The notes beneath the pieces are model-generated. The model worked only from the letters and a program-made list of their open reading frames with translations. It made no database searches and was not told the origin of the DNA. From Thermodesulfobacteriota bacterium (lineage in GTDB: Bacteria; Desulfobacterota_D; UBA1144; Nemesobacterales; UBA2774): a DNA stretch of 64,000 nt. Below are positions 7,669 to 29,967 of the stretch, piece by piece. A program made the position numbers and the translations under genes. Location of the stretch: assembly GCA_040754335.1 (NCBI GenBank), contig JBFMCV010000003.1, positions 47,356 to 111,355 on the forward strand. The letters run 5' to 3'. Numbering within the stretch: position 1 is the first letter of the stretch; each line of letters begins with the position of its first letter.

Positions 7669-7777
7669 CTTATTTAGGGATCAGAAAATATTCGTGAAGT
7701 AATATAAGCGCGGGAGACACGAAGCCACTCTTCCATAGCATGCTTCCCGCACGTCGTGGAAAAGCGAGGGAGGGGAC

Positions 7778-7975: not shown

Positions 7976-8077
7976 GTTCCAGCCTCACTTTTGTTTAATT
8001 CATGATAAACGTTCGAATTTGAAAGCACGGTCCCTAACCTCCTCGATACTTCCAACATGTGTATGATGAAACCGATC

Positions 8078-9424
8078 TCAGCCCGATTTCACGGTACTTT
8101 GCGGGGCACTCCCTGATACTTTATGGTGAAAGGGCGTCAGCCCCCAGTGCCGGAGGCAGGAAAAGGTAAGGGCCAGTATAAAGACCTGACTCATGACAAA
8201 GACAAACGCCATGCCGGCCTCTTTAAACCGGGGAACTATCAAAATTGCAAGCAAGAGGTGTATTGACGCGGTCAATATTCGGATGACGGCATATAACCTG
8301 TCCTTGCCGAACGGGAGCATGATCTGTATGCCCAGAACATCGGAAAGAGCCATCAGAATAGGCAGGACGGCCATAATCTGAAGCACCGCTATCGACGGAT
8401 CAAACCCTTTCCCCAGGACAATCTTCACTATGAGCGGCGCACCGAAGAAGAGCGCGAAAGACGTAATGATCCCGAGACCGCCGACTGCGTAGACAAGCCT
8501 CTTCCCCCAGAGAAGCACCGTCTCCCTTGACGAAGACGCGAGCTGACTGAACCTGGGATAGACCGCCTGAGCAAGGGGCCTGAACATACCCATCAGCGAA
8601 AGGGTTATCTTTTCGGCGGCGCTGTAATATCCCACCGCCGAGTAATTCGTCAGCAGCCCAAGAATGAAACTGTTGCCGCCTATATAGAGACTCTGCGCTA
8701 TGTTCGATACAAACAAAGTCAGACCTCCCGACAAAACGCTCAATACTTCGCCTGCGCCCGGCATCCGGATACGGATCCGAAGTCTTCTGACGGCGAACAA
8801 CACTCCGGCCAGTCCAGCGAATACCCACTGGAAGGATAGTAGTCCCGCATATACCAAATAATCATCCGGGTTCCTGACGAAAATAAACACACCCGCTGTC
8901 GCTACGGAACGCATAATCAGATTTATCGCGGATATTGCTTTCATCCTCTCGAGTCCCAGAAAAAGCCAGGACGGAAAAAGCATATTACCTACGACGAGAC
9001 CGTACAAAATCAGCAGCAGTGGCGCGATCTGATTCATCTTACGCACGGCTGCTATCATCGCCAGCAATACAAGAAATCCCGCGAGACTAAGGAGGAATTT
9101 TGCAAGCCACACGCTTGATGAAAGACGACTTACCGCTCGGTTGTCGTCGCGTTTGATCGAAATCTCTCTCGTTGCCGTGAGGTCGAACCCGTAATTGATG
9201 AAGAAAACAAAAAAATTAATAAGACTCTGCCCGAAAGATACGAGTCCGAACTTCTCAGCTCCCAATACACGAACCAGATAAGGGACCGTGATCAGGGGAA
9301 GTACGTAGAATGAAATTTGCAGCACGTATAGAGAAATAATATTCGCGCATATAGTACTTTTAAGCCCTCTCCGGATCGTATTTGATATAACTCTTCGCAC
9401 TGGTTTCAGGTCTTCCCGGAACAA
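8078..9424 (-). CDS. wzx: Polysaccharide biosynthesis flippase (Wzx-like, MOP superfamily)
   Basis: 448 aa with about 12-14 TM helices and a typical Wzx N-terminus (YVLPLITVPYLVRVLGAEKFGL). Confidence 0.65.
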   Translation of the reverse strand: MFREDLKPVRRVISNTIRRGLKSTICANIISLYVLQISFYVLPLITVPYLVRVLGAEKFGLVSFGQSLINFFVFFINYGFDLTATREISIKRDDNRAVSRLSSSVWLAKFLLSLAGFLVLLAMIAAVRKMNQIAPLLLILYGLVVGNMLFPSWLFLGLERMKAISAINLIMRSVATAGVFIFVRNPDDYLVYAGLLSFQWVFAGLAGVLFAVRRLRIRIRMPGAGEVLSVLSGGLTLFVSNIAQSLYIGGNSFILGLLTNYSAVGYYSAAEKITLSLMGMFRPLAQAVYPRFSQLASSSRETVLLWGKRLVYAVGGLGIITSFALFFGAPLIVKIVLGKGFDPSIAVLQIMAVLPILMALSDVLGIQIMLPFGKDRLYAVIRILTASIHLLLAILIVPRFKEAGMAFVFVMSQVFILALTFSCLRHWGLTPFHHKVSGSAPQSTVKSG

Positions 9425-14586: not shown

Positions 14587-14759
14587 GTTACCCTCCCCAT
14601 GGGCACGAAAGAACGATAATTCACCTTGGGATTAACTGCTTTTACGGCTGTCCGGAACGCGCGAACACGGGATTTGACACAGCTTCGCCACCTGACTCAC
14701 ATCCCTAAACTCACTACGCCGTTATCCGGGAACCGGTTTATTACAAAGCCGGCAAACAA

Positions 14760-15350
14760 TCAAACTAATTCAATATCAGCCGTGTTTATATCAACAGCCA
14801 CGGACCGCTTAATGATATCGATCGAAATAACGAGTCTTTTGTTCCCTTTCCCGGAAAGTACCTTTCCCGTAATTCCCGCGAGCGGGCCGTTTATGACTCT
14901 TACTTCTTTCCCCTCCTCAAAATACGGGTACGGATCGCTCTCCATTTTCGCTTCCAAGAATTTTCTGACAGAATCTATCTGATCATTCGGGACAGGCTGG
15001 AGCCTGCCGTTTGCGCTCAGTATTCTGACCACCCCTCGAGTGTTCAGAACTTGAAAAATCGCGAGTGAATCAAGCGGGTGGATTCGCACAAAAAGGTAGC
15101 CGGGGAAAAGCGGGAGCTGAATCCGTTTCTTCCTGTCTATCCACTGACTGACGACATCCCTCAGAGGGAGAAAAGTCTCGATCCCCCTTTTCTCAATAGA
15201 GCGGTTGACCGCCTTTTCATGCCTGACGTTGGTGTAAACCGCATACCATTCTTTGTGCTCATTGTGCGCGCCGATGTCGAAGTTACCGGACGAGAGGGTT
15301 CTCTCCTTGTGCACAGATTGCGTGATGTCAGTTTCGACGATTTTATTCAT
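14760..15350 (-). CDS. NusG-family transcription antiterminator paralog (RfaH/UpxY-like)
   Basis: NGN domain (WYAVYTNVRHEK...GIETFLPL) and a KOW-like C-terminus. The ATG overlaps the stop of the upstream receiver gene by 8 nt. Sits immediately upstream of the EPS operon. Confidence 0.65.
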   Translation of the reverse strand: MNKIVETDITQSVHKERTLSSGNFDIGAHNEHKEWYAVYTNVRHEKAVNRSIEKRGIETFLPLRDVVSQWIDRKKRIQLPLFPGYLFVRIHPLDSLAIFQVLNTRGVVRILSANGRLQPVPNDQIDSVRKFLEAKMESDPYPYFEEGKEVRVINGPLAGITGKVLSGKGNKRLVISIDIIKRSVAVDINTADIELV

Positions 15351-15774
15351 AATATTTCCGTCCCGATGCCGGTCTCAGAGCCCCAGGCGGGCCCTCTTGC
15401 GCCGATGAACCATGCTTCTTTGCCAGCCTGTTTATAATTCTTGCAACCTCATCGAATTCCGTGGATTTATCCAGGAAATAATCCGCTCCCTCATCTAAAC
15501 ATTTTTTTCTATACTGAGGGTATGGAAAGTTCGTGAGCATTATTATTTTCTGATCGGAACGACTATTCTTAAACTTTTTAAGAAGTTGTATTCCATTCCA
15601 CTCATCCATGCGTATGTCGAGTATTATGACGTTCGGTTTGAGGTTATTGTTTGCCAGAATCGCGCTTCGTCCGTCTTCAGCCTGCTCCACGATATCCACT
15701 CCGTCAATCGAATCAAGTAAACTTACCAACCTGTCACGCACAATCTTGGAATCATCCACTACTAAAACCTTCAT
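15343..15774 (-). CDS. Single-domain response regulator (CheY-like receiver)
   Basis: MKVLVVDDS...ILDIRMDEWNG...MLT receiver motifs. Confidence 0.75.
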   Translation of the reverse strand: MKVLVVDDSKIVRDRLVSLLDSIDGVDIVEQAEDGRSAILANNNLKPNVIILDIRMDEWNGIQLLKKFKNSRSDQKIIMLTNFPYPQYRKKCLDEGADYFLDKSTEFDEVARIINRLAKKHGSSAQEGPPGALRPASGRKYYE

Positions 15775-16050
15775 GATATTGTTATCCGAACAGTTTTGTA
15801 CTGAGCATAACGTATAGGCGTTAAATTAGAAATCAGGAAACTTCCCTAATTTATATAGGACTCTGGATAATAGTTTTGTAGGGATTTTCCTACAATTGCA
15901 TCAAGCAGAAAGACTGCAAAGGTTGAGCAGAGGAATTCTGCTAATTGATCATTTACTCTGACAAGAAGCGTATTAATTGAATTACATGCCGCAAATGTTT
16001 CAGAATGTCGGAGTAAATGCCGGAAGGTTACATTGCAAAATACGCCTGAG

Positions 16051-16680
16051 CTAAACGAGGGCGTGCCTGATGGAATAATTTATGAGCTCGGCGTTCGTTT
16101 TCATGTTCATTTTCTGTAGTATGCGCGTGCGGTATGTGCTCACAGTCTTTTCGCTTAAAAATAGCTCATTCGATATCTCTTTTATCGTCTTACCCATCGC
16201 AATCATGCACAACACCTGGAACTCGCGGTTCGAGAGGGCCTCATCTGGCGTCGAAGAGGAATTATCATCCAAATCTTGAGCCAACTTTTCAGCGAGAGAC
16301 GGACTCACGTACTTGCCCCCGGCGACAACCTTCCTCACAGCTCTCACGAGCTCTTCGGGGGCGCTGTCTTTGGTCATATAACCTGCAGCACCGGCTTTAA
16401 GAACTCTTACGGCATACAAGCTTTCCGGGTAAATGCTTATTATAAGCACGTTCATTCCGGCATGTTCCCTCTTTAACTGCTCCAGAAGATCGAGCCCGTT
16501 CCTATCGGGAAGCGATATATCGAGCAGTATCACATCAAACTTCGTATTGCGGATTAACTCCAGGGCCTCTCTCGCTGTTCTCGCTTCGTCATAAACAGAG
16601 ATATCGGATTCGTTCTCAAGAATAAATTTCAGCCCCATCCTTACTACAGGGTGGTCATCAGCAATAAGCACCTTAATCAT
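16051..16680 (-). CDS. NarL/FixJ-family response regulator (receiver + LuxR HTH)
   Basis: IADDHPVVR...LLDISLPDRNG receiver, plus a LuxR-type HTH (LSNREFQVL...KTVSTYRTRILQKM). Confidence 0.85.
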   Translation of the reverse strand: MIKVLIADDHPVVRMGLKFILENESDISVYDEARTAREALELIRNTKFDVILLDISLPDRNGLDLLEQLKREHAGMNVLIISIYPESLYAVRVLKAGAAGYMTKDSAPEELVRAVRKVVAGGKYVSPSLAEKLAQDLDDNSSSTPDEALSNREFQVLCMIAMGKTIKEISNELFLSEKTVSTYRTRILQKMNMKTNAELINYSIRHALV

Positions 16681-17482
16681 TCGTTTTCCTCCTACTCGGA
16701 ATGAAGATTGACACCTTGGTCCCCTTCCCGCTCTTGCCTACTATATCTACGTCTCCTCCGAATAAAAGAGCCCTTTCCCTGATACCTAGAAGTCCCAAGG
16801 ACTGGGGAGCGGAAATATCCACCGTTGAAATACCCTTTCCGTTATCTATGACTTCAAGCTTGTACTTGTTACGGTATTGTTTTAACTTAACCTTGACCGT
16901 CGTCGCCCCAGAATGTCGCGCTACATTCGTCAGAGTTTCCTGAAAAATCCGGAATACGGCGGTAGCGTACTCCCTTTCGAGCTCCATGCATTCAAGCTCG
17001 GAGACGAAAATACACTTAATTCCCGTCAGCTTCTCGAAGTCCTGCGCCTGCCATTCGATGGCTCCGATTGTCCCGAGGTCATCGAGTATGCCGGGCCTCA
17101 GCTCCATCGCAATCCTGCGGACCGATTGAATGTTCGAGTCTATAAGCGCTGACATTTTCCTGATTATTTCGTTCAGCGGCTCCGTCAGGGTCTTGTCAAA
17201 TTTCTCATCGAGCCGAGCTTTCAACAAACCCAGGTCTATTTTAAGCGCCGTTAGCGACTGGCCGAGCTCATCATGAACCTCACGCGATATTTTTGTCCTC
17301 TCTTCTTCGCGTACGGACTCAAGGTGCTTAGTCAGAGCACGTAGCTGTTTATAAGAATTTTTGAGCTCTCTTTCTTTGAACCTTCTCTTGGTGATCTCTT
17401 TTCTCAGAGTTTCGTTAGTCTCTTCGAGCTCCGCATTCCTATTATCGACATGCGTGTCAGACTTTGAATTTATCCCTTTCAC
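16673..17482 (-). CDS. Cytoplasmic sensor histidine kinase (HisKA_3 + HATPase_c, NarX/DegS-like), no TM segment
   Basis: N-terminal coiled coil. H-box REVHDELGQSLTALK. C-terminal ATPase motifs (NVARHS..., DNGKGI, GLLGIRERA). Overlaps the RR gene start by 8 nt. Confidence 0.8.
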   Translation of the reverse strand: MKGINSKSDTHVDNRNAELEETNETLRKEITKRRFKERELKNSYKQLRALTKHLESVREEERTKISREVHDELGQSLTALKIDLGLLKARLDEKFDKTLTEPLNEIIRKMSALIDSNIQSVRRIAMELRPGILDDLGTIGAIEWQAQDFEKLTGIKCIFVSELECMELEREYATAVFRIFQETLTNVARHSGATTVKVKLKQYRNKYKLEVIDNGKGISTVDISAPQSLGLLGIRERALLFGGDVDIVGKSGKGTKVSIFIPSRRKTND

Positions 17483-17959
17483 CTTGCGGACTCCGCACTT
17501 CTATCGGATGGTATCCAATACCGTTCGTTTATTTAGACATATAAATATCCGTGCCACCCTGCAATAATCTCGGATATATATATCTAGAAGTTCTGCGGGT
17601 TAACAATCCCTGGCATCGTTCCGCATGTTTCCACATCTCGAAGTGTGGAAAACGAGATTTCAATCCAGGATCCATTTAGTAAAGCGACGGGAGCAAATAT
17701 CGAGTCTTCTTTCTCCGAAACATTCATTCTTGTAAGCCTAACTTATAAAAAATCACAATCAAGCAAAATTTAAATGAAGGTATAGAAGGTATGAACAATC
17801 TTTGCAGTTCATAGCCCTAGGTAAAATTCATGGCAGTGATTCCGGTATGATACGATTGAAATTACCGATCAAAAACTAATTAATTAGAACAGCCATGTCG
17901 TAAAAACAGGGACACCAAGAATGTGAAATACAACTCACTGTTGTTGGAAGATAATGAGG

Positions 17960-18014
17960 TGGCGGAGGGCGAGGGATTCGAACCCCCAAGTCCTTGCGGA
18001 CGCCGGTTTTCAAG
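17960..18014 (-). repeat. 55-bp exact copy of the 3' half of tRNA-Ser (anticodon loop to CCA). It is a tRNA-derived fragment and not a functional tRNA.
   Basis: Identical to 28453..28507. The upstream sequence cannot form acceptor, D or anticodon stems (TAGGA cannot pair with ACCGG). Confidence 0.7.
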
Positions 18015-18326
18015 TCCTATTCAGTGCGTATTCATAACTCTCCGGAGTCACCGAAATAATTGTAAACACACTTAAAAAAACGATTTCCATCTATTACATC
18101 TGGTTCAATTGGTTCTATATGGTGGCAAGAATTATGGATGGTTCTTAGAAAATGCCTAGAAAGAATTGAGCGCTATAGAATGACACCTATTACTATTGTT
18201 CGGAATTAAAAATCTTCGGAGAAATGCGCCATTAAATATTATCTAGTTCGCCACACGGCACATTGAATTGCCCGTGAGTACATTCTCTACTTCAAGTTTA
18301 AAACAGGCTTTTATAAAATTAGAACC

Positions 18327-19076
18327 TCAAATATCAATTTCCATCAAATCTTCAGCTAGAATAACATCCACATCCACATACTTCCTGACCTGGCTGATAA
18401 TATCTATTTCATCACAATCGGAATAAAGGTGTGTCAGAATAATTTTTTTGGCGCCTGAAGCTCTTCCTATCTTTCCGACTTCAGTAGGGGTAAGATGGGC
18501 ATGAAATTTAAGTTCGTCCGGAAAAGAACATTCGATAACTAACAAATCCGCTTCCCTAGCGAGCTCAATTAATTTTTCTGTATATCCAGTATCCCCGGAA
18601 TATACTAATGATTTCCCATTGGACTCTATTCTGTACGCAATGCTGTTCTCGGTATGAAATGTATCGCTCGCTACAAGAACAAAATCTTCGAGCGTTACCG
18701 GTTCCTCATTTATTTCTTTTACGGTTAGCAAGTCCGGAGCAATCCAGTCGTGGTAAGCTGACTTTAGAGATGTGTATAAATCAATGAAACCTCTTGGGCC
18801 CCATATTTCAAGTGGTTTTTCGCGGAATTTTTTTGGGTGAGGATATTTTGTAGCAAATAAAAATGGGATTAAATCCGCAGTATGATCGGGATGAAAGTGG
18901 GTTATGAATATATGGTCCACTTTCAGATAATCCACGCCGACCATGCCTAATTTCCATGTAGTGCCATTTCCGCAATCAAGTAAAACAGTTGATTTTGCAA
19001 GCTCCAGTGCGTAGCCTGATGAGCCTCTTCTAATGTTGGGGACACAAGTTCCGGAACCTAATATATGTAGTTTCAT
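18327..19076 (-). CDS. MBL-fold metallo-hydrolase (RNase Z/ElaC-like short form)
   Basis: HFHPDH metal-binding motif (HxHxDH) with a later D and H. The gene is conspicuously AT-rich compared with its neighbours. Confidence 0.6.
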   Translation of the reverse strand: MKLHILGSGTCVPNIRRGSSGYALELAKSTVLLDCGNGTTWKLGMVGVDYLKVDHIFITHFHPDHTADLIPFLFATKYPHPKKFREKPLEIWGPRGFIDLYTSLKSAYHDWIAPDLLTVKEINEEPVTLEDFVLVASDTFHTENSIAYRIESNGKSLVYSGDTGYTEKLIELAREADLLVIECSFPDELKFHAHLTPTEVGKIGRASGAKKIILTHLYSDCDEIDIISQVRKYVDVDVILAEDLMEIDI

Positions 19077-19674
19077 CTTACAAATTAAAGGGGTTATGAA
19101 CTAAATCCAGCTATCGGTATCTGAAGCTAAACACCGCCCAATCCTAGATTACTGCAATTTCTATACCTGTCTAAAAGTCGGGCCGAGGATAACATATATG
19201 AATAGAGTTCTATATCAAGGGCATTAGTCTCCAAGACAGCCTCTTTGCAATTAACCTTTGATAAGCCGACAATTACATGCTTCATAAGTATCTACAGATA
19301 CATCATATTAATCACTACTCCGTCCATGCATATTAAATATCCATACTCTCTACAATGCCATTCATACAGAAGAAATCACATATATAATAATTCTCTGGCT
19401 ATTATAATTAACAGAAATCGTTAAGCATAAATATTAAGCAATGCTGCTTAGTTCATGTGCATTTCCCGCTACGCATTATTTAGAAAAATCATTATCATCA
19501 GACGTGTATTTGACAAGAATCTGTGTCTATGCCTTACAGACTGAATAATTATTCAATCTTAGCAGACACTAAGCGAAATTTCGTAATATTGCTTGTCACT
19601 CCTTAAAAGATTACATCTCTAATCCTTTTCAGTGGCATTCATCTTGCCACGATATTTTATAGAAAGGGGGATGT

Positions 19675-21564
19675 ATGCCGACAGAACATACGGCGCAAAG
19701 AAAAAGCGCCGAGGATTGTCAACGAGTTAAATCTCCGATACAGGCATATCTAGAGCGGCTTCACGCAAAGTGCTCAAAGCTGCAAGATGGACAGATCGCT
19801 ACCTATATCCCCGAGCTATCCAAGGCGGACCCGAACTGGTTCGGCATCTGCATTGCAACCACAGACGGTCGGGTCTATGAAGTCGGCGATACGCGTCAGC
19901 CATTTACGATACAGTCGATCTCCAAACCGTTCGTATACGGCATAGCTCTTGAGGACAGAGGCATCAATACGGTGCTCGGAAAGATAGGTGTTGAGCCTAC
20001 AGGCGACGCTTTTAACTCGATCAGCCTGGCTCCCGAATCCGGCTGTCCGTTCAACCCTATGATCAATGCCGGCGCAATCGCCGCGACATCCCTTGTGGTT
20101 GGCGATTCCAGCGATGACAAGATGCAGCGCATTTTGAGAGTTTTCTCGACCTACGCTGGACGCGAGCTTTCCATTGATACAACTGTCTACAAATCGGAAA
20201 AAGAGACGGGCCATCGCAATCGAGCGATTGGTCATATGCTGCGCAACTTTAATATACTGAACGAGGATCCCGATATAGCCCTCGACCTCTACTTTCAGCA
20301 GTGCTCAATTTCAGTCGATGCTCGGGATCTTAGCCTTATGGCGGCCACTCTGGCGAACGGCGGGGTTAATCCGCTGACGAAGGATCGAGCAATAAGTGAT
20401 GAGTTCCTCGAAAACCTTATGACCATCATGACAACTTGCGGAATGTACGACTACGCCGGCGAGTGGATGTATTGGATCGGCATACCCGCCAAGAGCGGTG
20501 TCGCAGGGGGAATTATGGCGGTTATGCCAGGTCAGGCCGGGATCGGAGTATTTTCGCCGCCTCTAGATGCACGGGGGAATAGTGTCCGCGGGATCGAGGT
20601 TTGCAAGAACCTTTCGAGGGATTTTAACCTCCACTGCCTTCGCGTTCCGCGCTCCTCACGATCTGCCATCCGGGCTCAGTACGATATCTCCAAGATTAGA
20701 TCCAAACGGCTCCGCGGTGAGCGTGATTCGGAGATTCTCGATAAATCGGGCACCCGGGCAAAAGTTTATGAGCTGCAGGGGGACCTTGTTTTTTCGACCG
20801 TCGAAGTAACTGTCCGCAGGATTGTCGATGCAAGCGATACCCTGGATATCGCCGTCATCGATTTCAAGCGAGTCACAAATATAGAGGACTCGTCCGCCCA
20901 GATACTGCTCGAATTAATCAGGACTTTGGGAGTTAACGGAAAATTCCTTTTATTAGCGAGCTTACAGCAGAGACACTCGAAGTTCATAAGATTCCTGCAA
21001 GAACAGCTTACGAACGACGATCAAGAGAGAACCTGGCTACGCATATTTCCCGATATGGATATCGCAATAGAATGGTGCGAAAACCGTTTGATTGCAGGTC
21101 AACGCCTCGATGACGGCTCTCATGAGGTGAAGCTGGCGGAGCATGACCTCTGCCGCGGACTTACGACGGAAGCCGTAGCGTTCTTGGAAACTATACTTAA
21201 GAGAAGGCGTTATGAACCCGGAGAGCTCATAGTTCGAAAGGACGATCCGGCTGATGAAATCTACTTGCTCATGAGCGGTGAAGTGAGCGTCAGGATCGAC
21301 CTTCCCAACGGCCAAATCAAACGGCTTTCGACCCTTTCTCCCGGTATGGCGTTCGGCGAAATTGCCGTCATAAACCGCTCCGTGCGATCAGCAGACGTCC
21401 ACGCTGATAAACACGTAGAGTGCTATCTACTGTCAACGGCCGCATTCGAGGAGCTTGGCGAGACAAATCCCATGATCAAAATGACGCTTCTCCAAAATCT
21501 GTTACGCAATTTCTCTCGGATGCTTACTATGGTTGAGCGGGAAGTCACTACGCTCGCTTGGTGA
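19675..21564 (+). CDS. glsA: Glutaminase A fused to STAS and cyclic-nucleotide-binding (CAP-family) domains
   Basis: Glutaminase motifs (KPFVYGIALE, NPMINAGAI, SGVAGGI). STAS-like region (YELQGDLVFSTVE...). C-terminal cNMP domain with FGEIAV...RSADV (the PBC RSA motif). RBS AAAGGGGG upstream. Confidence 0.75.
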   Translation: MPTEHTAQRKSAEDCQRVKSPIQAYLERLHAKCSKLQDGQIATYIPELSKADPNWFGICIATTDGRVYEVGDTRQPFTIQSISKPFVYGIALEDRGINTVLGKIGVEPTGDAFNSISLAPESGCPFNPMINAGAIAATSLVVGDSSDDKMQRILRVFSTYAGRELSIDTTVYKSEKETGHRNRAIGHMLRNFNILNEDPDIALDLYFQQCSISVDARDLSLMAATLANGGVNPLTKDRAISDEFLENLMTIMTTCGMYDYAGEWMYWIGIPAKSGVAGGIMAVMPGQAGIGVFSPPLDARGNSVRGIEVCKNLSRDFNLHCLRVPRSSRSAIRAQYDISKIRSKRLRGERDSEILDKSGTRAKVYELQGDLVFSTVEVTVRRIVDASDTLDIAVIDFKRVTNIEDSSAQILLELIRTLGVNGKFLLLASLQQRHSKFIRFLQEQLTNDDQERTWLRIFPDMDIAIEWCENRLIAGQRLDDGSHEVKLAEHDLCRGLTTEAVAFLETILKRRRYEPGELIVRKDDPADEIYLLMSGEVSVRIDLPNGQIKRLSTLSPGMAFGEIAVINRSVRSADVHADKHVECYLLSTAAFEELGETNPMIKMTLLQNLLRNFSRMLTMVEREVTTLAW

Positions 21565-21645
21565 GTCACGAGTTTGTACCAGAACAATCATTAGGTTTTA
21601 TCCGTACAGGTCAGTCGCGGTAAAAATAAGAGAGAGGGGTGGAGA

Positions 21646-24600
21646 ATGAAGAGTAGGCGTTCCCATATCCTGTGTTTTGTTATGGGTACAAGTTTTTTGT
21701 ACGCATATTTGTATTCCCATGCCACTTTCGCGGAAACATGTGAAAAACCGGTTGCAAAAGTGGTCTCAGTTCAAGGAACCGTAGAGGCACAAAGGGCGGG
21801 CGAAACGCAGTGGCAAGAAGTAAAATTAAACGACACATACTGCCCGGGAGACAAGATCCGGGTGCAGGAGAAAAGCCGTGCCGACGTAACGCTCCTCGAG
21901 AAGTCGGTAATCCGTCTAAATCAAAATACCACGATAACGCTCGAAAATGTGAAGGAAGAACGGACGAGTGTTATAGACATGATCAAGGGAGCCGCTCATT
22001 TCTTCAGCAGTGGTCCAGACAGCCTTGAGGTACATACACCGTATACGACTGCAGGTGTCAGGGGAACGGAATTTCTCGTAAGCATTGAAGACGATAAGAC
22101 CTTGTTGTCGACATTCGAAGGTACAGTCGTGGCATCGAACGATGCCGGCAGCCTGACGCTTACCGGCGGCCAGTCAGCAATTGCCGAGGCGGGGAAGCCC
22201 CCGGTGCTCAGTATCGTGGCGCGTCCTCGAGATGCCGTACAATGGACACTCTACTATCCGCCCGTCCTTTATCTCAGTCCCGATGAATTTCAATCCGGGC
22301 CGGGCTGGGAAGGCATGGTTCGTAAATCCATCGAGCTTTACATAAGCGGGGATATTCAGGGAGCCTTCGACAGTATTAAGGATGTGCCTGAGGATGTCCG
22401 CGATCCGCGTTTTTTTACCTATCGGGCCTCACTGCTCTTGGCGGTGGGCCAGGTTAATGAAGCAGATGCCGATATCGAGCGCGCGCTGAGGCTCGACCCC
22501 AAATATAGCGACGCCTTCGCGCTTGAAACAATTATCTATATTGTAGAGAACGAAAAAGACAAAGCCCTTGATGCCGCAGAAAAAGCCGTGGAAACGAATC
22601 CCGACTCCGCCACGGCAGAGATCGCCCTTTCTTATGCACAGCAGGCAATGTTTGACCTGAAAGGCGCTCGAACAAGCCTTGAAAAGGCGGTGCAGCTTGA
22701 TCCTCAAAACGCGCTTGCGTGGGCACGGTTAGCAGAGATCTGGGCGTCATTCGGCGATCTAGGCAAAGCGCTCAATGCGGCACAGGAGGCCGTAGTCCTT
22801 GAGCCGAATCTCTCGAGGACGCAGACAGTTCTCGGCTTCGCATATCTGACCCAGGTCGATACAAAACAGGCAAAGGATGCATTTGAAAAAGCGATCGCCC
22901 TTGACCAGGCCGATTATCTCCCGAGGTTGGGCCTTGGTCTGGCGAAGATCCGGGATGGCGATCTGCACGGCGGCGGGAGGGAGATTGAGATTGCAGCAAG
23001 CCTGGATCCAAACAACTCAATTGTCCGCAGCTATCTGGGCAAGACCTACTTTGAAGAGAAACGCACCAAGCTGGATGTGCGCGAGTACGAAACCGCTAAA
23101 CAACTGGACCCCCTGGACCCGACACCATGGTTCTATGACGCGATAGCGAAACAAACGACGAATAGGCCGGTTGAGGCTCTCCAAAACATGCAAAAATCCA
23201 TTGAGTTAAACAACAACAGAGCTGTTTACAGATCGCGTCTGCTGCTCGACTCGGACCTGGCCGCACGCAGTGCCGGCCTGGCACGTATCTATACAGATCT
23301 CAGCTTCCAGCAGCTTGCCCTCGTTGAGGGATGGAAATCCGTTAACATTGACCCCTCGAGCTTTTCCGCACACCGGTTCCTGGCTGACTCATATGCTGTT
23401 TTACCCCGACACGAAATCGCCAGGGTGAGCGAGCTGCTGCAGTCACAGCTGCTTCAGCCCATCAACATCACGCCGATTCAGCCCCGGCTCGCGGAGAGTA
23501 ATCTATTTCTGATCTCCTCCCAAGGACCAGGCTCTGTCTCCTTCGATGAGTTCAACCCGCTTTTCAACCGCAACCAGGTAACCCTTCTGACGAGCGGCCT
23601 GGTTGCCGAAAATGAGACATGGGCCGGAGAAGGCGTTGTCTCGGCCATATATAATAAGGCCAGCTTCAGCGGGGGTTACTCATACTTCGGCACGGACGGG
23701 TTTAGAGAAAACGACGATCAGAAGGATCAGATCGCAACCGCCTATCTCCAATTGGAGCTCACTTACAAAACAAGCATTCAGGCTGAGTACCGCTATAGAA
23801 ACACAGAACTGGGAGACCTGGCACTCAGATTCTTTCCGGATGACTTCCTCCCAGGCTTGAGAAACAAGCAGGAAAGAAACTACTTCAGGGTCGGTGGACG
23901 GCACGCATTTTCCCCGGGTTCGGTCCTCATCGGCAACTTTACATATCAAAATGCAGATTTTAATTTGACGGACAAGCTTAGTTCCTTTGACGCGAAAAGA
24001 CCGGAAGACGCCTATAGCGCCGAGGCCCAACACCTGTTCCGTTCTCAATACATAAATCTCGTTAGCGGCGCGGGCTACTTCGATGTAAACGGAAGGATCG
24101 ATACGACTATAACGATTGATATTCCCCCGCCCGACGGGCCAATAATTGCTCAATCCACAACAAGTACGGACCTCCAGCACCTTAATATGTACATATACTC
24201 ATACTTGAACCCCATGAACAATGTGACGTTCACCCTTGGGGCAAGTGCCGACTTCCTGAGCGGCGACAGTCCCGATGTCGGGGATAAAGACAAGTTCAAT
24301 CCGAAATTCGGTATAACCTGGAATCCGATCCCGTCTACGACTTTACGCGCTGCGGCGTTCAGGGTGTTAAAGAGAACGCTGATTACGGACCAGACCCTGG
24401 AGCCGACCCAGGTCGCCGGCTTCAACCAATTTTTCGATGACGTCAACGGAACTGAATCATGGGTATTCGGCGGGGCTATCGATCAGAAATTCCCGAAGGA
24501 TTTCTTCGGTGGCGTACAATTTACAAAGAGGGATCTGGAAGTTCCGTTCCTGGATTTTACAGCCGATCCAGAAAATCCTCCGGTCCGGAATGAGGACGTC

Positions 24601-25035
24601 GACGAATATCTGGGTCTAGCCTACCTCTTCTGGGCTCCGCATCCATGGCTCGCGTTAAGAGCACAGTATTTATTCGAACGATTTGAGACTCAGGGTTTGA
24701 CCGACCAGCCGAAAGAGCTGACTACAAATCGTGTCCCCCTCGGGGTCAACTTCTTCCACCCTTCCGGATTGGGCTCTAATGTGACAGTGACTTACCTTAA
24801 TCAGGACGGGGATTTTCTGTCGCCGGACGGTGACGGATTTGTGTCAGGCGAAGATAACTTCTGGATCGTCGATGCAGCGGTCTATTACCGTCTGCCGAAA
24901 CGGTACGGTTTCATCACGGTAGGAGCGACGAATCTCTTTGACCAAGAGTTCAATTATTTTGAGGTAGACGTCGATAATCCGCGCATACAGCCTGGAAGGG
25001 TGTTCTATGCACGGGTTACACTGGCGCTTCCATAA
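21646..25035 (+). CDS. Large secreted protein with N-terminal FecR domain, TPR repeats and a C-terminal region resembling an outer-membrane beta-barrel
   Basis: Signal peptide. FecR-like segment (TVEAQRAGETQWQEV...AGVRGTEFLV). At least 6 TPR-like repeats (AFALETIIY..., ALSYAQQAM..., AWARLAEIW...). The C-terminal ~600 aa has alternating hydrophobic/polar beta-strand character with aromatic-rich ends. Confidence 0.55.
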   Translation: MKSRRSHILCFVMGTSFLYAYLYSHATFAETCEKPVAKVVSVQGTVEAQRAGETQWQEVKLNDTYCPGDKIRVQEKSRADVTLLEKSVIRLNQNTTITLENVKEERTSVIDMIKGAAHFFSSGPDSLEVHTPYTTAGVRGTEFLVSIEDDKTLLSTFEGTVVASNDAGSLTLTGGQSAIAEAGKPPVLSIVARPRDAVQWTLYYPPVLYLSPDEFQSGPGWEGMVRKSIELYISGDIQGAFDSIKDVPEDVRDPRFFTYRASLLLAVGQVNEADADIERALRLDPKYSDAFALETIIYIVENEKDKALDAAEKAVETNPDSATAEIALSYAQQAMFDLKGARTSLEKAVQLDPQNALAWARLAEIWASFGDLGKALNAAQEAVVLEPNLSRTQTVLGFAYLTQVDTKQAKDAFEKAIALDQADYLPRLGLGLAKIRDGDLHGGGREIEIAASLDPNNSIVRSYLGKTYFEEKRTKLDVREYETAKQLDPLDPTPWFYDAIAKQTTNRPVEALQNMQKSIELNNNRAVYRSRLLLDSDLAARSAGLARIYTDLSFQQLALVEGWKSVNIDPSSFSAHRFLADSYAVLPRHEIARVSELLQSQLLQPINITPIQPRLAESNLFLISSQGPGSVSFDEFNPLFNRNQVTLLTSGLVAENETWAGEGVVSAIYNKASFSGGYSYFGTDGFRENDDQKDQIATAYLQLELTYKTSIQAEYRYRNTELGDLALRFFPDDFLPGLRNKQERNYFRVGGRHAFSPGSVLIGNFTYQNADFNLTDKLSSFDAKRPEDAYSAEAQHLFRSQYINLVSGAGYFDVNGRIDTTITIDIPPPDGPIIAQSTTSTDLQHLNMYIYSYLNPMNNVTFTLGASADFLSGDSPDVGDKDKFNPKFGITWNPIPSTTLRAAAFRVLKRTLITDQTLEPTQVAGFNQFFDDVNGTESWVFGGAIDQKFPKDFFGGVQFTKRDLEVPFLDFTADPENPPVRNEDVDEYLGLAYLFWAPHPWLALRAQYLFERFETQGLTDQPKELTTNRVPLGVNFFHPSGLGSNVTVTYLNQDGDFLSPDGDGFVSGEDNFWIVDAAVYYRLPKRYGFITVGATNLFDQEFNYFEVDVDNPRIQPGRVFYARVTLALP

Positions 25036-25112
25036 TCGGAACAAATGAGCAAAGGCGGGGCGATTTTGTCAATGAGATGCAGAAAGGTAAAACACATAAG
25101 GAGGTTGTAATC

Positions 25113-25832
25113 ATGTTGGAGAGATTAACGCTGATTTGCCTGTTAGGTATGGTTCTCTTCCCGGTATTTGGGACTGTAGCCAGTGCGGCGACATGTCCTT
25201 CAGGTTATACGTATAAATGTCCGATCATTGGGGGGACAAAATGCTGCGCGTGCTGGAAGACGGGGAGCGAAATTTGTGACGCTGAAGTCACCGGATTGGG
25301 CAACATTAAAAACTGCGTCCCCGGTGTGAATTGCCCGGTCGTGACATGTTCTGTCTACGGTACAGTAGATTTAGGAGACGGATCGTGCGACCCCAATACA
25401 TTAGACCCTGACTGTGGCATCCAGGGCATCGCATATTGTGTAAACCCGGCAGGTAATTCTTCACAATCCCAGGGAAATCCATTTACTCTAGAGACGGTAC
25501 TTACTGGTGTAGCTGATATCGAGAAATGCGACAAGAATGGCAAATGTCAGAGGTCAGTCGAGGTCAATCCGGAGGATTGCCCGGACTGCTGCATAAATCC
25601 AAATTGGCAATTCAAAACTTTTACGGCCACACAATTCAACGGAGAGGTTTGCGTATGCCCCGGCGGGTACTCAACTGGAGGAGTTTGTTGCGCAGATATT
25701 GCACGACAACTTGACGGCAGTTGTGCGACAGCGGGCGATGAAGTCTGCCTCGCACAGCAATGTACTGCTGATTTGACAGGATACAAACCTGGGAGGAGCA
25801 TACCGTATAATTGCACCGACCTGCCGCAATAA
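25113..25832 (+). CDS. Secreted cysteine-rich protein (about 34 Cys in about 215 mature residues), hypothetical
   Basis: ATG at 25113 preceded by a perfect AAGGAGG. Signal peptide LICLLGMVLFPVFGTVASAA. Many CC, CxC and CxxC motifs. Confidence 0.6.
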   Translation: MLERLTLICLLGMVLFPVFGTVASAATCPSGYTYKCPIIGGTKCCACWKTGSEICDAEVTGLGNIKNCVPGVNCPVVTCSVYGTVDLGDGSCDPNTLDPDCGIQGIAYCVNPAGNSSQSQGNPFTLETVLTGVADIEKCDKNGKCQRSVEVNPEDCPDCCINPNWQFKTFTATQFNGEVCVCPGGYSTGGVCCADIARQLDGSCATAGDEVCLAQQCTADLTGYKPGRSIPYNCTDLPQ

Positions 25833-25948
25833 GTCGTGGCAGCGTGACACTGTGAGTCGATGCAGTTTGAGCATATACGGATTCCGTCGAGTATAGTCCG
25901 CGTAACAGATTCAGACCGCGGGTAACTTCTCTATCGACGGGTGTGCCT

Positions 25949-28219
25949 ATGAGATTATCTCTTAAACCCCTTTTCTCGATCAATCCTGTTTCTCTGACTC
26001 TAGGCACAATCCTGGTTGTTATAGTGCTCTTCCTGGCAAGAATAACGATCCTCGACCTTATCGAATTGAAAACTTACGACCTCCGATTTCTAACTCGCGG
26101 GCAGTTACCATCCTCCCCGGCGGTCGTTATAGCAGCCATAGACGAAAAAAGCCTAGATAGCGAAGGGCGCTGGCCCTGGCCCAGGTCCAAGATCGCCGCT
26201 CTCGTGGATATCCTTTCTCAAGACGGAGCCAAAGTGATCGGTTTTGACATCGGTTTCCTGGAGGCGGATGAGAACTCACAGCTTGCGTTGATCAATCAAT
26301 TTAGTCAGAAAGTAGATGCTCAATATGGTAAAAACTCACGGCTGGCCAGCTTCATACAAGAAAGCAAAAAGCGAGCCGACAACGACACGGCCCTGGCCGA
26401 AGCCATAAAAAAATCGTCCGCGGAAGTAGTTCTTGGATACTTCTTTCATATGAGTGAAGCCGACCTTGATTATAGTATCGAACAGAGCGAGATGGACAAA
26501 CAGCTTGAACGCATCAGTGATTCAAAATACCCTTTCGTACTTTACGAAGAACAGGGAACAGATTCCGTGCCCTTTATTAAAGCCTATGCGCCCGAGAGCA
26601 ATCTCGAAATTATCACCGAAGCGGCAGCCTCTTCGGGCTACTTCACCATGCGAAGTGATCAGGACGGTGTCCTCCGCTGGATGCCGCTCACTATACAGTA
26701 TGGCGAGGATTTGTTTCCTCCTCTGGCGGTCTTGTGTGCCTGGCAGTACCTGGGCAAACCTCAACTGATGGTTAAGGTCGGGCGATACGGAGTGGAAGAG
26801 ATACAGATGGGAGATCGTTTCATACCGACTGATGAAAGCGGTCAACTGCTCATTAATTACCTAGGCCCTCCAAAAACCTTTCCTCATCACTCTGCCAGCG
26901 ATATTCTGAGCGGCAAGTTCACTAAGGGAACTTTTAAAGATAAAATCGTGCTTGTTGGGGCCACAGCCACTGGCATCTATGATCTGAGGAACACACCCTT
27001 CAGCCCCTCATATCCCGGTGTGGAGGTTCATGCCAGTGTCATCGACAACATATTGACACAAAATTTCATCTCGAAGCCCAGATGGTCGAGGATTTACGAC
27101 CTGCTCGCCATAATTATTCTGGGAGTTCTCATCGGGATCGCCATACCGCGTATGAGTGCACTTAAAGGGTTTTTGTTTGTCGCCGGACTGATCATCTTAT
27201 ACATCTCCGTGGTACTGTGGCTCTTCGTCAGAGCCGGAGTGTGGCTCAATATCGTCTATCCCCTGCTGACGCTATCAATGAGTTATATGGTCCTTACCGT
27301 TTATTATTATGCTACGGAAGAGCGGGAACGTAAGAAAATAAAAAAGGCATTCACTCATTATGTAGCACCCGTGGTAATCGAAGCCATGCTGAAGGACCCG
27401 TCCCAGTTAAAACTGGGGGGAGATGAGAAGGTTCTGACAGTCTTGTTCAGCGACCTTCAGGGATTTACTTCCGCATCTGAGCGTTATGCCCCTCATGAGA
27501 TGATCGTGATTCTGAGCGAATACTATGCCCGGATGACAGAACAGGTATTCGCACATCAGGGGATGCTGAAAGAATACGTGGGTGACGAGATGATGGCTAT
27601 TTTTGGCGCCCCTATTGATCAGAACGACCATGCGGAAAGAGCGTGCGCCGCAGCCCTGGCCATGCGGGATAATCGAAATACGCTGAACGAAGAGTGGGCC
27701 GAGATTGGACGCCCGCCCCTGATCGCCAGGACAGGGATCAACTCGGGCCGCATGCTTGTAGGGAATCTGGGATCCAAATATCGTTTTGCTTACGGCGTTC
27801 TAGGGGACCATGTGAACCTGGGCTCCCGTCTTGAGGGTCTAAACAAGGGTTACGGTACTGAAATCCTCATCGGTGAGAACACAGCACAGCTTGTCGGCGA
27901 TAAGTTTCTCCTGCGGGAAGTCGACATGGTGCAGGTGGTCGGCAGGGTACAGCCCGTGCGTATATATGAGCTCCTGGCCGCACACGGCACGCCACTGCAT
28001 CATGAGCAGGAGAAAGCATTCGGTTTCTATGCTGCAGGGCTGGAAGCGTATCGAGAACGGCAATGGAACGAAGCTCTTGGTATATTCAACAAATGCCTGG
28101 GGCTATGTCCCGATGACGGTCCATCACGAACAATGGCGGAGCGTTGTCAAATCTACCGGAAGACACCGCCCCCTGAAGAGTGGGACGGTGTTTTTGAAGC
28201 GATCCACAAATTCAAGTGA
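25949..28219 (+). CDS. CHASE2-sensor class III adenylate/guanylate cyclase with C-terminal TPR-like region
   Basis: N-terminal TM helix, a periplasmic CHASE2-like domain (about 330 aa), 3 TM helices, then a CYCc domain (VLFSDLQGFTSASE...VGDEMMAIFGAP...GINSGRMLVGNLGS...YGVLGDHVNLGSRLE). Confidence 0.8.
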   Translation: MRLSLKPLFSINPVSLTLGTILVVIVLFLARITILDLIELKTYDLRFLTRGQLPSSPAVVIAAIDEKSLDSEGRWPWPRSKIAALVDILSQDGAKVIGFDIGFLEADENSQLALINQFSQKVDAQYGKNSRLASFIQESKKRADNDTALAEAIKKSSAEVVLGYFFHMSEADLDYSIEQSEMDKQLERISDSKYPFVLYEEQGTDSVPFIKAYAPESNLEIITEAAASSGYFTMRSDQDGVLRWMPLTIQYGEDLFPPLAVLCAWQYLGKPQLMVKVGRYGVEEIQMGDRFIPTDESGQLLINYLGPPKTFPHHSASDILSGKFTKGTFKDKIVLVGATATGIYDLRNTPFSPSYPGVEVHASVIDNILTQNFISKPRWSRIYDLLAIIILGVLIGIAIPRMSALKGFLFVAGLIILYISVVLWLFVRAGVWLNIVYPLLTLSMSYMVLTVYYYATEERERKKIKKAFTHYVAPVVIEAMLKDPSQLKLGGDEKVLTVLFSDLQGFTSASERYAPHEMIVILSEYYARMTEQVFAHQGMLKEYVGDEMMAIFGAPIDQNDHAERACAAALAMRDNRNTLNEEWAEIGRPPLIARTGINSGRMLVGNLGSKYRFAYGVLGDHVNLGSRLEGLNKGYGTEILIGENTAQLVGDKFLLREVDMVQVVGRVQPVRIYELLAAHGTPLHHEQEKAFGFYAAGLEAYRERQWNEALGIFNKCLGLCPDDGPSRTMAERCQIYRKTPPPEEWDGVFEAIHKFK

Positions 28220-28452
28220 TATCGTTCCCGTTAGGACACCGGACTATTATCCGGGAATTCTAAAAGTTTTTATATTTGCGAGAATTCCGAAACTTATAAC
28301 TTAGAGCATCCTCTATATATTATTATCTTCTTAAGCGCCAGATCTCCCGAAGCTCTAATTCGAACTTAGAAAATACTTAGAAAGGCAAATTTGACGTGAC
28401 ATTTATCCTGTTTGTAAAGCAATTGCTATCGGCTATGATCATTCAACAAATC

Positions 28453-28538
28453 TGGCGGAGGGCGAGGGATTCGAACCCCCAAGTCCTTGCGGACGCCGGT
28501 TTTCAAGACCGGTGCATTAGCCGTTCTGCCAGCCCTCC
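28453..28538 (-). tRNA. tRNA-Ser (anticodon UGA), type II with long variable arm, CCA encoded
   Basis: Reverse complement: GGAGGGCTGGCAGAACGGCTAATGCACCGGTCTTGAAAACCGGCGTCCGCAAGGACTTGGGGGTTCGAATCCCTCGCCCTCCGCCA. 7-bp acceptor stem, G73 discriminator, anticodon stem CCGGT/ACCGG with loop CTTGAAA, T-loop GGTTCGAATCC. Confidence 0.85.
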
Positions 28539-28961: not shown

Positions 28962-29321
28962 TTAAGCCTTCTTTGCATATTCCGACATGCCGCTGATGTC
29001 GATCACCACCACAGGCTCGCTGCCGACAACCCATGCGTCGTGCCCCGGCGGGAGGTATGATACGTCACCAGGCCCGAATACCGCCTCCGAGCCGTCGTCC
29101 ATTTTAACAGCCAGGCGCCCGGAGACATGGTACTGCGTATGCGGAGCCTCGCAGCTTTTCGTATTGGCCAAAGGCTTCACGCTGTCGGACCACTTCCACC
29201 CCGGCTCTAGGGTCGCACGGCCGAACGTTATGCCCGCGAGAGTAACGAGCTCGAGCTTACCCTTGGGGAAGGAGCGTAATTCGTCGGGAGCGTCCAGGTT
29301 CTTCTTTTCCATCTTCGCCAT
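28962..29321 (-). CDS. Cupin-domain protein (cupin_2-like)
   Basis: 119 aa; the pattern GxxHxH...G...PPGHDAW is partially present (HTQYH, PPGHDAWVV). Confidence 0.5.
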   Translation of the reverse strand: MAKMEKKNLDAPDELRSFPKGKLELVTLAGITFGRATLEPGWKWSDSVKPLANTKSCEAPHTQYHVSGRLAVKMDDGSEAVFGPGDVSYLPPGHDAWVVGSEPVVVIDISGMSEYAKKA

Positions 29322-29932: not shown

Positions 29933-29967
29933 TGTGAGATCAAGCGGCTTTACTTCCAAACGTAAAT

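Follow-up and report, generated by a model that had tools for sequence, protein, structure and literature searches.

The 64,000-nt stretch of Thermodesulfobacteriota DNA analyzed here (the window) contains, at positions 17483–19674, an AT-rich patch that the initial annotation took to be either horizontally acquired DNA or the scar of a mobile-element insertion. The question raised by this locus is whether these 2.2 kb are one unit with one origin. It is likely, in our judgment, that the patch marks the downstream (attR) end of a 10.4-kb segment (18018–28452) lodged in the 3′ half of a tRNA-Ser(UGA) gene, and that it includes the last gene of this segment and two AT-rich spacers. The insertion-scar part of the earlier claim is upheld by the attR-like anatomy of a tRNA fragment, by an arm common to different cargoes and by an exact end of homology between relatives, while the view of the 2.2 kb as a single acquired unit is not.

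Composition of the AT-rich patch

With a GC of 0.382, the patch is the lowest of all the 2192-nt intervals of the 64 kb (mean 0.521, sd 0.036, z about −3.9), the second-lowest value being 0.454. The low GC perceived by eye was thus confirmed by the sliding calculation, but the background of 58–60% GC proposed with it was too high: the window has 0.52, and single 1-kb bins vary between 0.42 and 0.61. Long non-coding stretches had been described as well, and three of them, of 477, 309 and 598 nt, are without a large ORF (GC 0.386, 0.353 and 0.348, respectively). Non-coding DNA amounts to 63% of the patch, which accounts for part of its low GC, and these spacers (0.35–0.39) are more AT-rich than the average non-ORF DNA of the window (0.453). 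The codon bias attributed to the gene of an MBL-fold hydrolase is also real: with a GC of 0.400, the gene has the lowest GC3 (0.348) among 49 ORFs, the mean of the other 48 being 0.654 (sd 0.079, z = −3.9). The sources of the low GC are an AT-rich att arm, the spacers and the MBL gene.

Far from being a homogeneous block, the patch straddles a recombination junction. Positions 17483–17959 belong to a kinase/polysaccharide module, whose kinase flank is syntenic in the related loci L030–L036, including 17483–17792; positions 18018–19674 belong to the tRNA-flanked segment and are syntenic with a block of cAMP-related genes in L001, L007, L008, L014, L028 and L037. With this junction inside it, and with most of the island lying beyond it, where GC is near normal (0.49–0.52), the patch does not behave as one recently acquired piece.

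The first large gene of the flanking two-component/NusG-like/polysaccharide-export cluster encodes a sensor-less HisKA_3 histidine kinase identified by Pfam (16673..17482, minus strand, 269 aa). A fresh truncation of this gene by an insertion at 17482 was considered and rejected, as the nearest homologs of the kinase likewise have 269 aa. Upstream of it, a conserved small ORF of 47 aa (17584..17727, minus strand) has called genes as counterparts in L034 (49 aa, 69% amino acid identity) and L030 (41%); it is part of the neighbouring module and lies outside the island. No integrase domain was found in this left flank. Concerning a wider range, GC3 was 0.544 in the 13 ORFs located between 8078 and 28219, versus 0.691 in the 31 ORFs beyond the tRNA (p = 1e-5). 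This lower GC3 downstream of the tRNA, the polysaccharide cluster included, fits a stack of modules accreted at a tRNA hot spot.

The tRNA-Ser gene, its 3′ fragment and the proposed att arm

An intact tRNA-Ser(UGA) gene with encoded CCA occupies 28453..28538 on the minus strand (ARAGORN; Rfam tRNA 55.8 bits, E 6e-10). It is the regenerated target, the attL core and the upstream end of the island. The attR core is the tRNA-Ser remnant that had been noticed in the patch, a displaced 3′ fragment at 17960..18017 (minus strand) which corresponds to tRNA positions 29–86. Both copies are in direct orientation, 10,493 bp apart, and they are identical in 57/58 positions; identity begins at G29, in the anticodon stem, and is exact from C32, the first loop base, over the 55 nt of positions 32–86.

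The same fragment is present in L001, L002, L026 and L062, with an identical boundary in L001, L026 and L062. Between loci, 54–58 of its 58 positions are conserved, versus 40–70% identity in the adjacent spacer. When the window, L001 and L026 were aligned, the homology they share runs from the MBL gene to the fragment and ends at the final CCA, after which there are three unrelated sequences. L041, L064 and L056 retain no more of the tRNA than a degenerate 5′ half, which ends after the anticodon loop, i.e., at the same breakpoint. A second, weaker tRNA-Ser fragment was not found in the window, where the next best matches had 10–19 nt and E ≥ 0.24; a 14-nt match at 17482–17495 was treated as due to chance, and an Rfam E-value scan of 15–30 kb returned the intact tRNA as its sole match.

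The 5′ side of the tRNA (28965–42456) is syntenic in L041, L042, L062 and L066 (83–97% amino acid identity), and the tRNA is preceded by the same cupin-like and phytase-like genes in L042 and L062. Beyond this conserved 5′ flank, the DNA located 3′ of the tRNA differs in each of the four loci, and it is unrelated in L041, L042 and L062. That of L062 is a 6.8-kb cassette (RmlD, GT2, methyltransferase, YfhO, GT2) placed between an intact tRNA and an identical 58-nt fragment, and it is likewise without an integrase.

A conserved att arm of ~87 nt (18078..18164, minus strand) precedes the tRNA fragment by about 60 nt. In the corresponding alignment (A2), arm identity between loci is 70–91%, compared to 7–70% in the spacer and 18–79% in the DNA further upstream (18–47% where the cargo differs). 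The arm was found in L062, next to the glycosylation cassette, in L005 and L010, which have another island between the tRNA and the cyclase, and in L001, L002, L026 and L007; it is common to islands whatever their cargo. Inside the island, 69–91 nt downstream of the 3′ end of the tRNA, there is an arm-like 23-mer, CTTTCTAAGTATTTTCTAAGTTC (28362..28384, minus strand), with two TTTCTAAG words spaced 11 nt apart, which coincides with the 23-mer of the attR arm in 20/23 positions. A search for the arm 23-mer with up to 4 mismatches in ~0.97 Mb (window plus loci) matched six attR arms and 28362..28384 only; on the attL side, such a 23-mer was seen in the window alone. IMG/VR contained neither the arm nor the 55-nt core. 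The 28-nt end of the tRNA matched eight viral contigs there, six with a full tRNA-Ser gene, most of them located in tRNA clusters, and two with the 28-nt end only, and the arm was in none of the eight.

Gene content of the candidate island and the MBL-fold enzyme

Four cargo genes are on the plus strand. The one nearest to the tRNA encodes a CHASE2-domain adenylate/guanylate cyclase (25943..28219, 758 aa; Pfam CHASE2 E 3e-66, Guanylate_cyc E 1e-21), 100% identical to P0241 of an NCBI Thermodesulfobacteriota MAG. It is followed by an ORF for a Cys-rich secreted protein (25077..25832, 251 aa), conserved in relatives and without Pfam, NCBIfam or PHROG matches, by a FecR-domain/TPR protein (21646..25035, 1129 aa; Pfam FecR E 5e-18 and TPR families), 83–92% identical in relatives, and by a glutaminase–STAS–cyclic-nucleotide-binding fusion (19675..21564, 629 aa) recognized by Pfam (Glutaminase E 1e-119, cNMP_binding E 3e-19, STAS E 4e-5) and by the NCBIfam glutaminase model. 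The last gene, on the minus strand, is that of the MBL-fold hydrolase (18327..19076, 249 aa, YhfI-like; Pfam Lactamase_B_2, PF12706, E 2e-19).

The spacer between the divergent MBL and glutaminase genes (19077..19674, GC 0.348) is probably regulatory: 600–700 nt are alignable in six relatives with a mean column identity of 64% and conserved blocks, and a conserved palindrome, TAAGCA-N4-TGCTTA, is located at 19435–19450. It matched no Rfam family. Consensus scans gave promoter counts no better than those of shuffled sequences (9 versus 7.1) and terminator counts weakly above them (5 versus 1.7 ± 1.6).

A Pfam scan of the five large ORFs that the repeats enclose revealed no integrase, the small ORFs had no PHROG match, and the gaps left over are of 598 nt or less. 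No integrase, excisionase or transfer gene was found in the segment or elsewhere in the 64-kb window, and the analysis recovered no integrase-bearing cognate element. A 10.4-kb segment without integrase resembles a decayed, CIME-like island, which is either fixed in place or dependent on an integrase acting in trans for its movement. As to related loci, L003 has one integrase ORF 5′ of its tRNA, and the gene beside the tRNA-Ser of L011, considered as a candidate integrase, was rejected because it encodes a methyltransferase.

The comparison of the MBL gene with its relatives had a divided outcome with respect to the acquisition proposed initially: the gene occupies the same place, beside the same neighbours, yet it is low-GC there too, with a GC3 0.05–0.24 under that of its neighbours in 7/7 loci. 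At this position, the values of dN/dS versus relatives (0.05–0.14) indicate purifying selection, and those of dS (0.5 to >1) correspond to saturated or nearly saturated synonymous sites, so that an acquisition of the gene, if there was any, took place long ago, before the clade diversified. Low-GC already before that diversification, the gene is probably an old xenolog or an old paralog and not a recent import. The genome appears to hold a second MBL paralog (P0091) of a different clade, the copy in the window being divergent.

Concerning its function, the MBL protein is most likely an enzyme of the predicted YhfI-like phosphodiesterase type that hydrolyzes cyclic nucleotides. YhfI-type enzymes are cAMP/cGMP phosphodiesterases (PMC9117128, PMC9293780), and the motif [T/S]HxHxDH defines the atypical class II (PMC9293780). 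The protein has an MBL fold, about 250 aa, this motif as THFHPDH (residues 59–65) and no RNase Z exosite, in keeping with the structural description of that class, and it resembles YhfI, Rv1339 and CpdA in size, fold, motif and absence of the exosite arm (PDB 6KNS; PMC9293780, PMC9117128). Its AlphaFold model (pLDDT 95.6) superposed by Foldseek on YhfI 6KNS/6KNT with TM 0.87/0.88–0.90 and rmsd 2.0–2.4 Å, and YhfI was both the best PDB sequence match (6kns, E 2e-22) and the best structural match by both-way coverage. The gene is also placed near a cyclase and a cNMP-binding effector. On the other hand, identity to YhfI is only about 25%, and NCBIfam NF041851, although aligned over the full length (1–248 / 1–252 of 253, E 2e-33), scored 115.6 bits, under its cut-off of 400; in more distant Dadabacteria, the orthologous MBL family occurs in an unrelated housekeeping context.

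Two other families share the superfamily branch and the metal motif of this protein. Compared to ribonuclease Z/BN (TIGR02651), it lacks the flexible arm, aligns in two pieces located on either side of the missing arm, is shorter (249 versus about 300 aa), scores 137 bits versus a cut-off of 293 and gives a target-normalized TM of 0.73. Compared to Apyc1 (PF23023), it scores 23.5 bits versus a cut-off of 50, over residues 30–79 only, with a PDB E-value of 1e-5 and a TM of 0.75. PADLOC gave no match for the MBL protein, and its matches to Pycsar components were judged to be at domain level only.

Origin of the segment and relation to known systems

The mechanism that we propose combines the anatomy of the locus with what is established about tDNA-integrating elements. 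A tyrosine-recombinase element, with an attP carrying a copy of tRNA positions 29–86, would have recombined at the anticodon stem-loop of the tRNA. The copy brought by the element would have restored the tRNA gene (28453–28538), and the original 3′ part of the host gene would have been pushed to the far end (17960–18017). The ~87-nt arm by the fragment and the 23-mer by the tRNA would be remains of the arms that bound the recombinase or accessory proteins. Today the segment has no integrase, and its content is the MBL gene plus the four genes of a cAMP signalling module (CHASE2 cyclase, FecR/TPR protein, Cys-rich protein and cNMP-binding glutaminase). An extension of this scheme, which we consider rather unlikely, is that a Dadabacteria-like family of small integrase-less cassettes (~87-nt arm, 58-nt core and swapped cargo) is moved in trans by an unlinked integrase, with the cAMP module and its own phosphodiesterase as the example in the window and the glycosylation cassette as that of L062. 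Movement of this kind would explain a near-perfect fragment beside a diverged spacer, and an outer flank different in every genome.

The alternative nearest to this scheme accepts the att scar as real and takes the 10.4 kb as resident chromosome, the arm and the fragment having been placed by accretion, deletion or att recombination, and the true mobile DNA being lost or elsewhere. The cAMP block plus MBL gene occurs without the fragment after the MBL gene in L003, L004, L008, L009, L014 and L028, and in L003 and L004, where the block follows the tRNA, this speaks for residence; against it, the MBL–arm–fragment junction is common to four lineages with different outer flanks. In L005 and L010 the block is outside (downstream of) an attR, with the same-arm island upstream of it, so that there it looks like resident DNA, a native downstream flank, and not like cargo; however, the displaced 3′ fragment always lies downstream of inserted DNA, and no simple deletion or inversion shifts the arm and the fragment past the MBL gene while keeping the direct orientation. 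L011 has tRNA-Ser, methyltransferase and MBL genes, no cAMP genes, and the same downstream synteny as L009; that the two differ in the four cAMP genes while the MBL gene stays with the downstream synteny also favours residence. In L037–L040 the block adjoins a different tRNA. The contigs of L034 and L037–L040 break off within the tRNA. The present arrangements may stem from one old integration, from repeated moves or from accretion and deletion. The absence of an integrase from the segment counts for the resident reading too, but the integrase-less cassette of L062 is bracketed in the same way with other cargo, and the arm-like 23-mer is found also on the tRNA side of the window. Altogether, residence of the whole segment seems doubtful, and its insertion in the tRNA gene is the interpretation that we prefer.

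Two further explanations were weighed, both of them very improbable. That the patch is one recently acquired foreign piece, e.g., a phage or ICE remnant, would suit the lowest-GC 2.2 kb of the window, the GC3 outlier that it contains and the tRNA fragment within it, but this reading is already contradicted. The patch spans a junction whose two sides are syntenic with different relatives, and the dS and dN/dS values of the MBL gene do not correspond to a recent arrival. A phage or plasmid origin found no support in blastn (distant mode) of the patch, which had no match in 50,697 phage (INPHARED) and 72,556 plasmid (PLSDB) records, and the only PHROG match of the MBL protein was a generic metal-dependent hydrolase family. 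It is also hard to believe that the fragment is unrelated to integration, being either a decaying duplicate tRNA or a chance or functional tRNA-like element, such as a cis-element for an RNase Z-like MBL. Several sources annotate the MBL protein as ribonuclease Z/BN, RNase Z models score it, and the fragment, which lies on the strand of the MBL gene and 309 nt downstream of it, is much more conserved than the DNA around it; against this, every copy of the fragment starts at the anticodon stem-loop, L062 has fragment and arm but no MBL gene, most MBL orthologs are without the fragment, and the protein lacks the flexible arm that binds tRNA, its score staying far below the RNase Z cut-off as given above.

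For annotation, what is gained is the exact placing of an island boundary (17960/17959) and of a tRNA-Ser integration hot spot in an uncultured lineage that has been little studied, with the low-GC MBL gene being an old resident rather than fresh foreign DNA. Of modest interest is the recurrence at this tRNA-Ser site of integrase-less cassettes with intact att ends and exchangeable cargo. The consistent linkage of the YhfI-like enzyme to the CHASE2 cyclase and the cNMP-binding glutaminase suggests a putative cAMP circuit. Were the cassettes indeed moved in trans, a complete second-messenger circuit (sensor cyclase, effector and degrading enzyme) would constitute a mobile unit.

An island end with a tRNA scar is an ordinary feature of a known kind, and the current understanding is not challenged by it. 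The locus differs from phage- or plasmid-derived DNA in that PHROG matches are to generic enzymes only and nucleotide matches are absent from INPHARED and PLSDB. It is closer to the tDNA-integrated genomic islands of Islander (Hudson, Lau and Williams 2015; PMC4383910), as both island ends are marked by a regenerated tRNA and a displaced 3′ fragment in direct orientation, and the DNA that fills the site varies from one relative to another. Its identity block begins at the anticodon stem-loop and reaches the CCA end, like that of the anticodon-centred 'A' attP class, to which 2083/3919 Islander islands belong (PMC4383910). Unlike those islands, the present one has no integrase (PF00589), and so it fails the integrase filter of Islander; it is also small (10.4 kb), with signalling cargo and no phage or conjugation genes. 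The other related systems are the CIMEs and the tandem att accretion described by Pavlovic et al. 2004 and Bellanger et al. 2011, as summarized in PMC5704250. CIMEs have been described in Firmicutes and Actinobacteria, and the candidate presented here is known from the sequence of an uncultured Dadabacteria-like MAG. It is like them in that the attL and attR cores are kept (with the arm at attR and the 23-mer at attL) while recombination and transfer genes are absent, in that the modules of its neighbourhood look stacked at a single att site, and in that L005 and L010 carry a further island with the same arm at the same tRNA.

Composition and layout of the AT-rich patch

The patch at 17483-19674 has a GC content of 38.2%, against a whole-window average of 52.2%, and is the lowest among all 2192-nt windows (mean 0.521, sd 0.036; next minimum 0.454). 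The initial annotation gave the GC of the patch correctly, but its background of 58-60% was wrong; the anomaly stands once that baseline is corrected. The patch consists of a 477-nt spacer between a histidine-kinase gene and a tRNA fragment (GC 0.386), the fragment itself (17960-18017, minus strand, 58 nt, GC 0.638), a 309-nt spacer (GC 0.353), the gene of a YhfI-like MBL-fold hydrolase, or MBL gene (18327-19076, minus strand, GC 0.400, GC3 0.348), and a 598-nt spacer up to a glutaminase gene (GC 0.348). Its non-coding parts are AT-richer than the average non-ORF DNA of the window (GC 0.453). A 47-aa ORF at 17584-17727 (minus strand), 5′ of the kinase, is conserved, with amino-acid identities of 69% and 41% to called genes of relatives L034 and L030, respectively. 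This is probably a genuine small gene, and the "non-coding" stretch upstream of the kinase would then not be empty.

Two other AT-rich stretches were observed. One (29968-30620, GC 0.42) encodes two paralogous small secreted proteins, Tyr- and Asp-rich, in internally repetitive DNA. The other, the second-lowest 2.2-kb window of the whole stretch (14699-16890, GC 0.454), includes a stand-alone receiver-domain gene (15343-16050, GC3 0.45) with a 276-nt spacer (GC 0.37) after it.

The tRNA-Ser gene, its displaced fragment and the conserved arm

The only tRNA gene detected by ARAGORN and Rfam in the scanned region is tRNA-Ser(UGA), at 28453-28538 (minus strand). Its positions 29-86 recur at 17960-18017 (minus strand) with 57/58 identities and an exact match over 55 nt, from the start of the anticodon loop through the encoded CCA. 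Gene and fragment are direct repeats spaced by 10,493 bp, and there are no further tRNA-Ser fragments elsewhere in the window. The tRNA-Ser 3′ remnant noticed initially in the patch is thus confirmed, with a length of 58 nt.

Between the repeats lie five genes, for a CHASE2 adenylate/guanylate cyclase, a Cys-rich secreted protein, a FecR/TPR protein, a glutaminase fused to STAS and cNMP-binding domains, and the MBL protein. An integrase domain is absent from all five and from the polysaccharide-cluster genes left of the fragment. Searching the patch against phage collections, as had been proposed, and against plasmid collections, gave no nucleotide similarity. The patch is the end of a decayed, integrase-less tRNA-Ser island. 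The cyclase protein is 100% identical to an NCBI entry (P0241); for the MBL (18327-19076) and kinase (16673-17482) genes, by contrast, there is no record of an identical protein, and the source annotation may omit them or flag them as pseudogenes.

The fragment also follows the MBL gene in relatives L001, L002 and L026. When the window, L001 and L026 are aligned, homology spans from the MBL gene through the fragment and breaks off precisely with the final tRNA base, beyond which the three sequences are unrelated. The outer flank of the window (the small ORF, kinase, LuxR-type regulator, receiver protein, NusG-like protein and Wza) is common to L030-L036; the contig of L034 begins at this junction too, within the 3′ end of the tRNA.

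About 60 nt upstream of the fragment there is a block of some 87 nt (18078-18164), the arm, which is conserved in the window, L001, L002, L026, L007 and L062; in L005/L010 a more diverged copy is followed directly by a 36-nt fragment and then by the cyclase. Between loci, identity is 70-91% in the arm, 54-58/58 in the fragment and 40-70% in the spacer separating them. Loci with different cargo have unrelated DNA upstream of the arm. A 23-mer of the arm consists of two TTTCTAAG words, 11 nt apart. Allowing up to 4 mismatches, it was found in about 0.97 Mb only on six attR sides (fragment ends) and as one 20/23 copy inside the island of the window, 69-91 nt from the intact tRNA. Arm and 23-mer are putative arm-type protein-binding sites of one element family. 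The proposal of an insertion scar was right for the fragment and its arm.

In L007 the MBL gene and the arm recur, but an Arg(UCU)-like tRNA piece takes the place of the Ser fragment (6700-6760), a hint that the target tRNA has changed within the family. An apparent Thr(CGT) tRNA end adjoins the kinase/polysaccharide cluster in the first 30 nt of L030-L032, and a tRNA-Thr(CGT) lies about 5 kb past the MBL gene in L008 and L014.

Family and age of the MBL gene

As noted initially, the MBL gene is of low GC; its GC3 is the lowest of 49 ORFs (z = -3.9 against the other 48). The protein carries the THFHPDH motif and aligns over its full length, with a score under the cut-off, to the cyclic-nucleotide-degrading phosphodiesterase family NF041851 of NCBIfam. 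Its best PDB sequence match is 6KNS, B. subtilis YhfI (PMC9293780), on which the predicted model (pLDDT 95.6) superposes with TM 0.87/0.88-0.90. Apyc1 is a poorer structural match (TM 0.75), while RNase Z has longer chains (TMt 0.73) and aligns in two pieces only. Enzymes of the YhfI type prefer cAMP/cGMP (PMC9117128). Because of this match and of the adjacent cyclase and cNMP-binding effector, its most likely function is predicted to lie in cAMP turnover. PADLOC Pycsar models match the cyclase domain (PycC, E 5e-19; gene 25943-28219), and its PycTIR model the cNMP-binding domain of the glutaminase (E 2e-12; gene 19675-21564); a Pycsar defence system was rejected, the matches being judged domain-level similarity.

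Concerning the age of the gene, MBL orthologs (75-90% identity) adjoin the same four cAMP genes in L001, L003-L010, L014, L028 and L037, from a lineage (Candidatus Dadabacteria / Thermodesulfobacteriota) known from MAGs. In 7/7 relatives tested, MBL GC3 is 0.05-0.24 under that of its neighbours; dN/dS is 0.05-0.14, with dS from 0.5 to >1. A 253-aa paralog apparently from the same genome (P0091), with 57% identity to the window copy and 79% to that of L019, groups in the family tree with another clade, whose members have a conserved housekeeping context and native GC. These data together indicate that the window gene is an old extra copy and not a recent import. Comparison with relatives gave a mixed outcome for the acquisition idea: the gene has the same neighbours there, but its GC is low there as well. 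The idea of a single acquired patch proved wrong. The MBL-glutaminase spacer (600-700 nt) is alignable over six loci and contains a perfect palindrome, TAAGCA-ATGC-TGCTTA (19435-19450), kept in L007, L008, L014 and partly in L001, which is likely an operator for divergent promoters.

Probable accretion next to the tRNA

Metagenome contigs were searched with the phytase-like protein (30920-32290) for relatives that share the 5′ side of the tRNA. This side (28965-42456) is syntenic in L041, L042, L062 and L066 (83-97% amino-acid identity), while the DNA downstream of the tRNA differs in each locus; the tRNA thus stays linked to its 5′ flank, and a hot spot lies on its 3′ side. L042 carries there DUF4384, SH3 and caspase genes, and L062 a 6.8-kb glycosylation cassette (1580-8515), without integrase, flanked by the intact tRNA-Ser and an identical copy of the 58-nt fragment. 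L062 has another tRNA-like 3′ end as well, of different sequence (GGGTCCGAATCCCGTCGGGCGCGCCA), at 8670-8695, 155 nt past that fragment. In L041 (8560-8606), L064 and L056, the tRNA-Ser is reduced to a degenerate 5′ half stopping after the anticodon loop, and these genomes must carry a functional tRNA-Ser gene elsewhere. In L003, an ORF with a Phage_integrase domain (1-234) stops 20 nt short of the tRNA-Ser 5′ end, the wrong side for a tRNA-3′-half island.

The reading as an island has limits. The cAMP genes and MBL occur with no fragment after MBL in six relatives (L003, L004, L008, L009, L014, L028). In L005/L010 they lie downstream of an attR, so the block looks resident there. L011 has tRNA-Ser, a methyltransferase and MBL, the cAMP genes being absent, and in L037-40 the block abuts a different tRNA, inside which four independent contigs break. 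In L037 the MBL gene (1348-1965), next to a KdpD-like gene, is shortened to 205 aa. Tandem accretion followed by att-site loss fits the data best. GC3 is 0.544 on the 3′ side (13 ORFs of the polysaccharide cluster and island, 8078-28219) vs 0.691 on the 5′ side (31 ORFs, 28962-63994; p = 1e-5); this step at the tRNA-Ser supports a stack of accreted modules and suggests accretion of no less than 20 kb of the DNA downstream of the tRNA.

The island end is a new instance of a well-known type, from a little-studied phylum. Islander delimits tDNA-integrated islands by a regenerated target gene at one end and a displaced 3′ fragment at the other (PMC4383910), the same arrangement as that of tRNA-Ser(UGA) and its fragment, and the crossover position belongs to its common anticodon-centred class (PMC4383910). 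The locus as a whole can be likened to CIMEs, for which tandem accretion and att-site loss have been described (PMC5704250).
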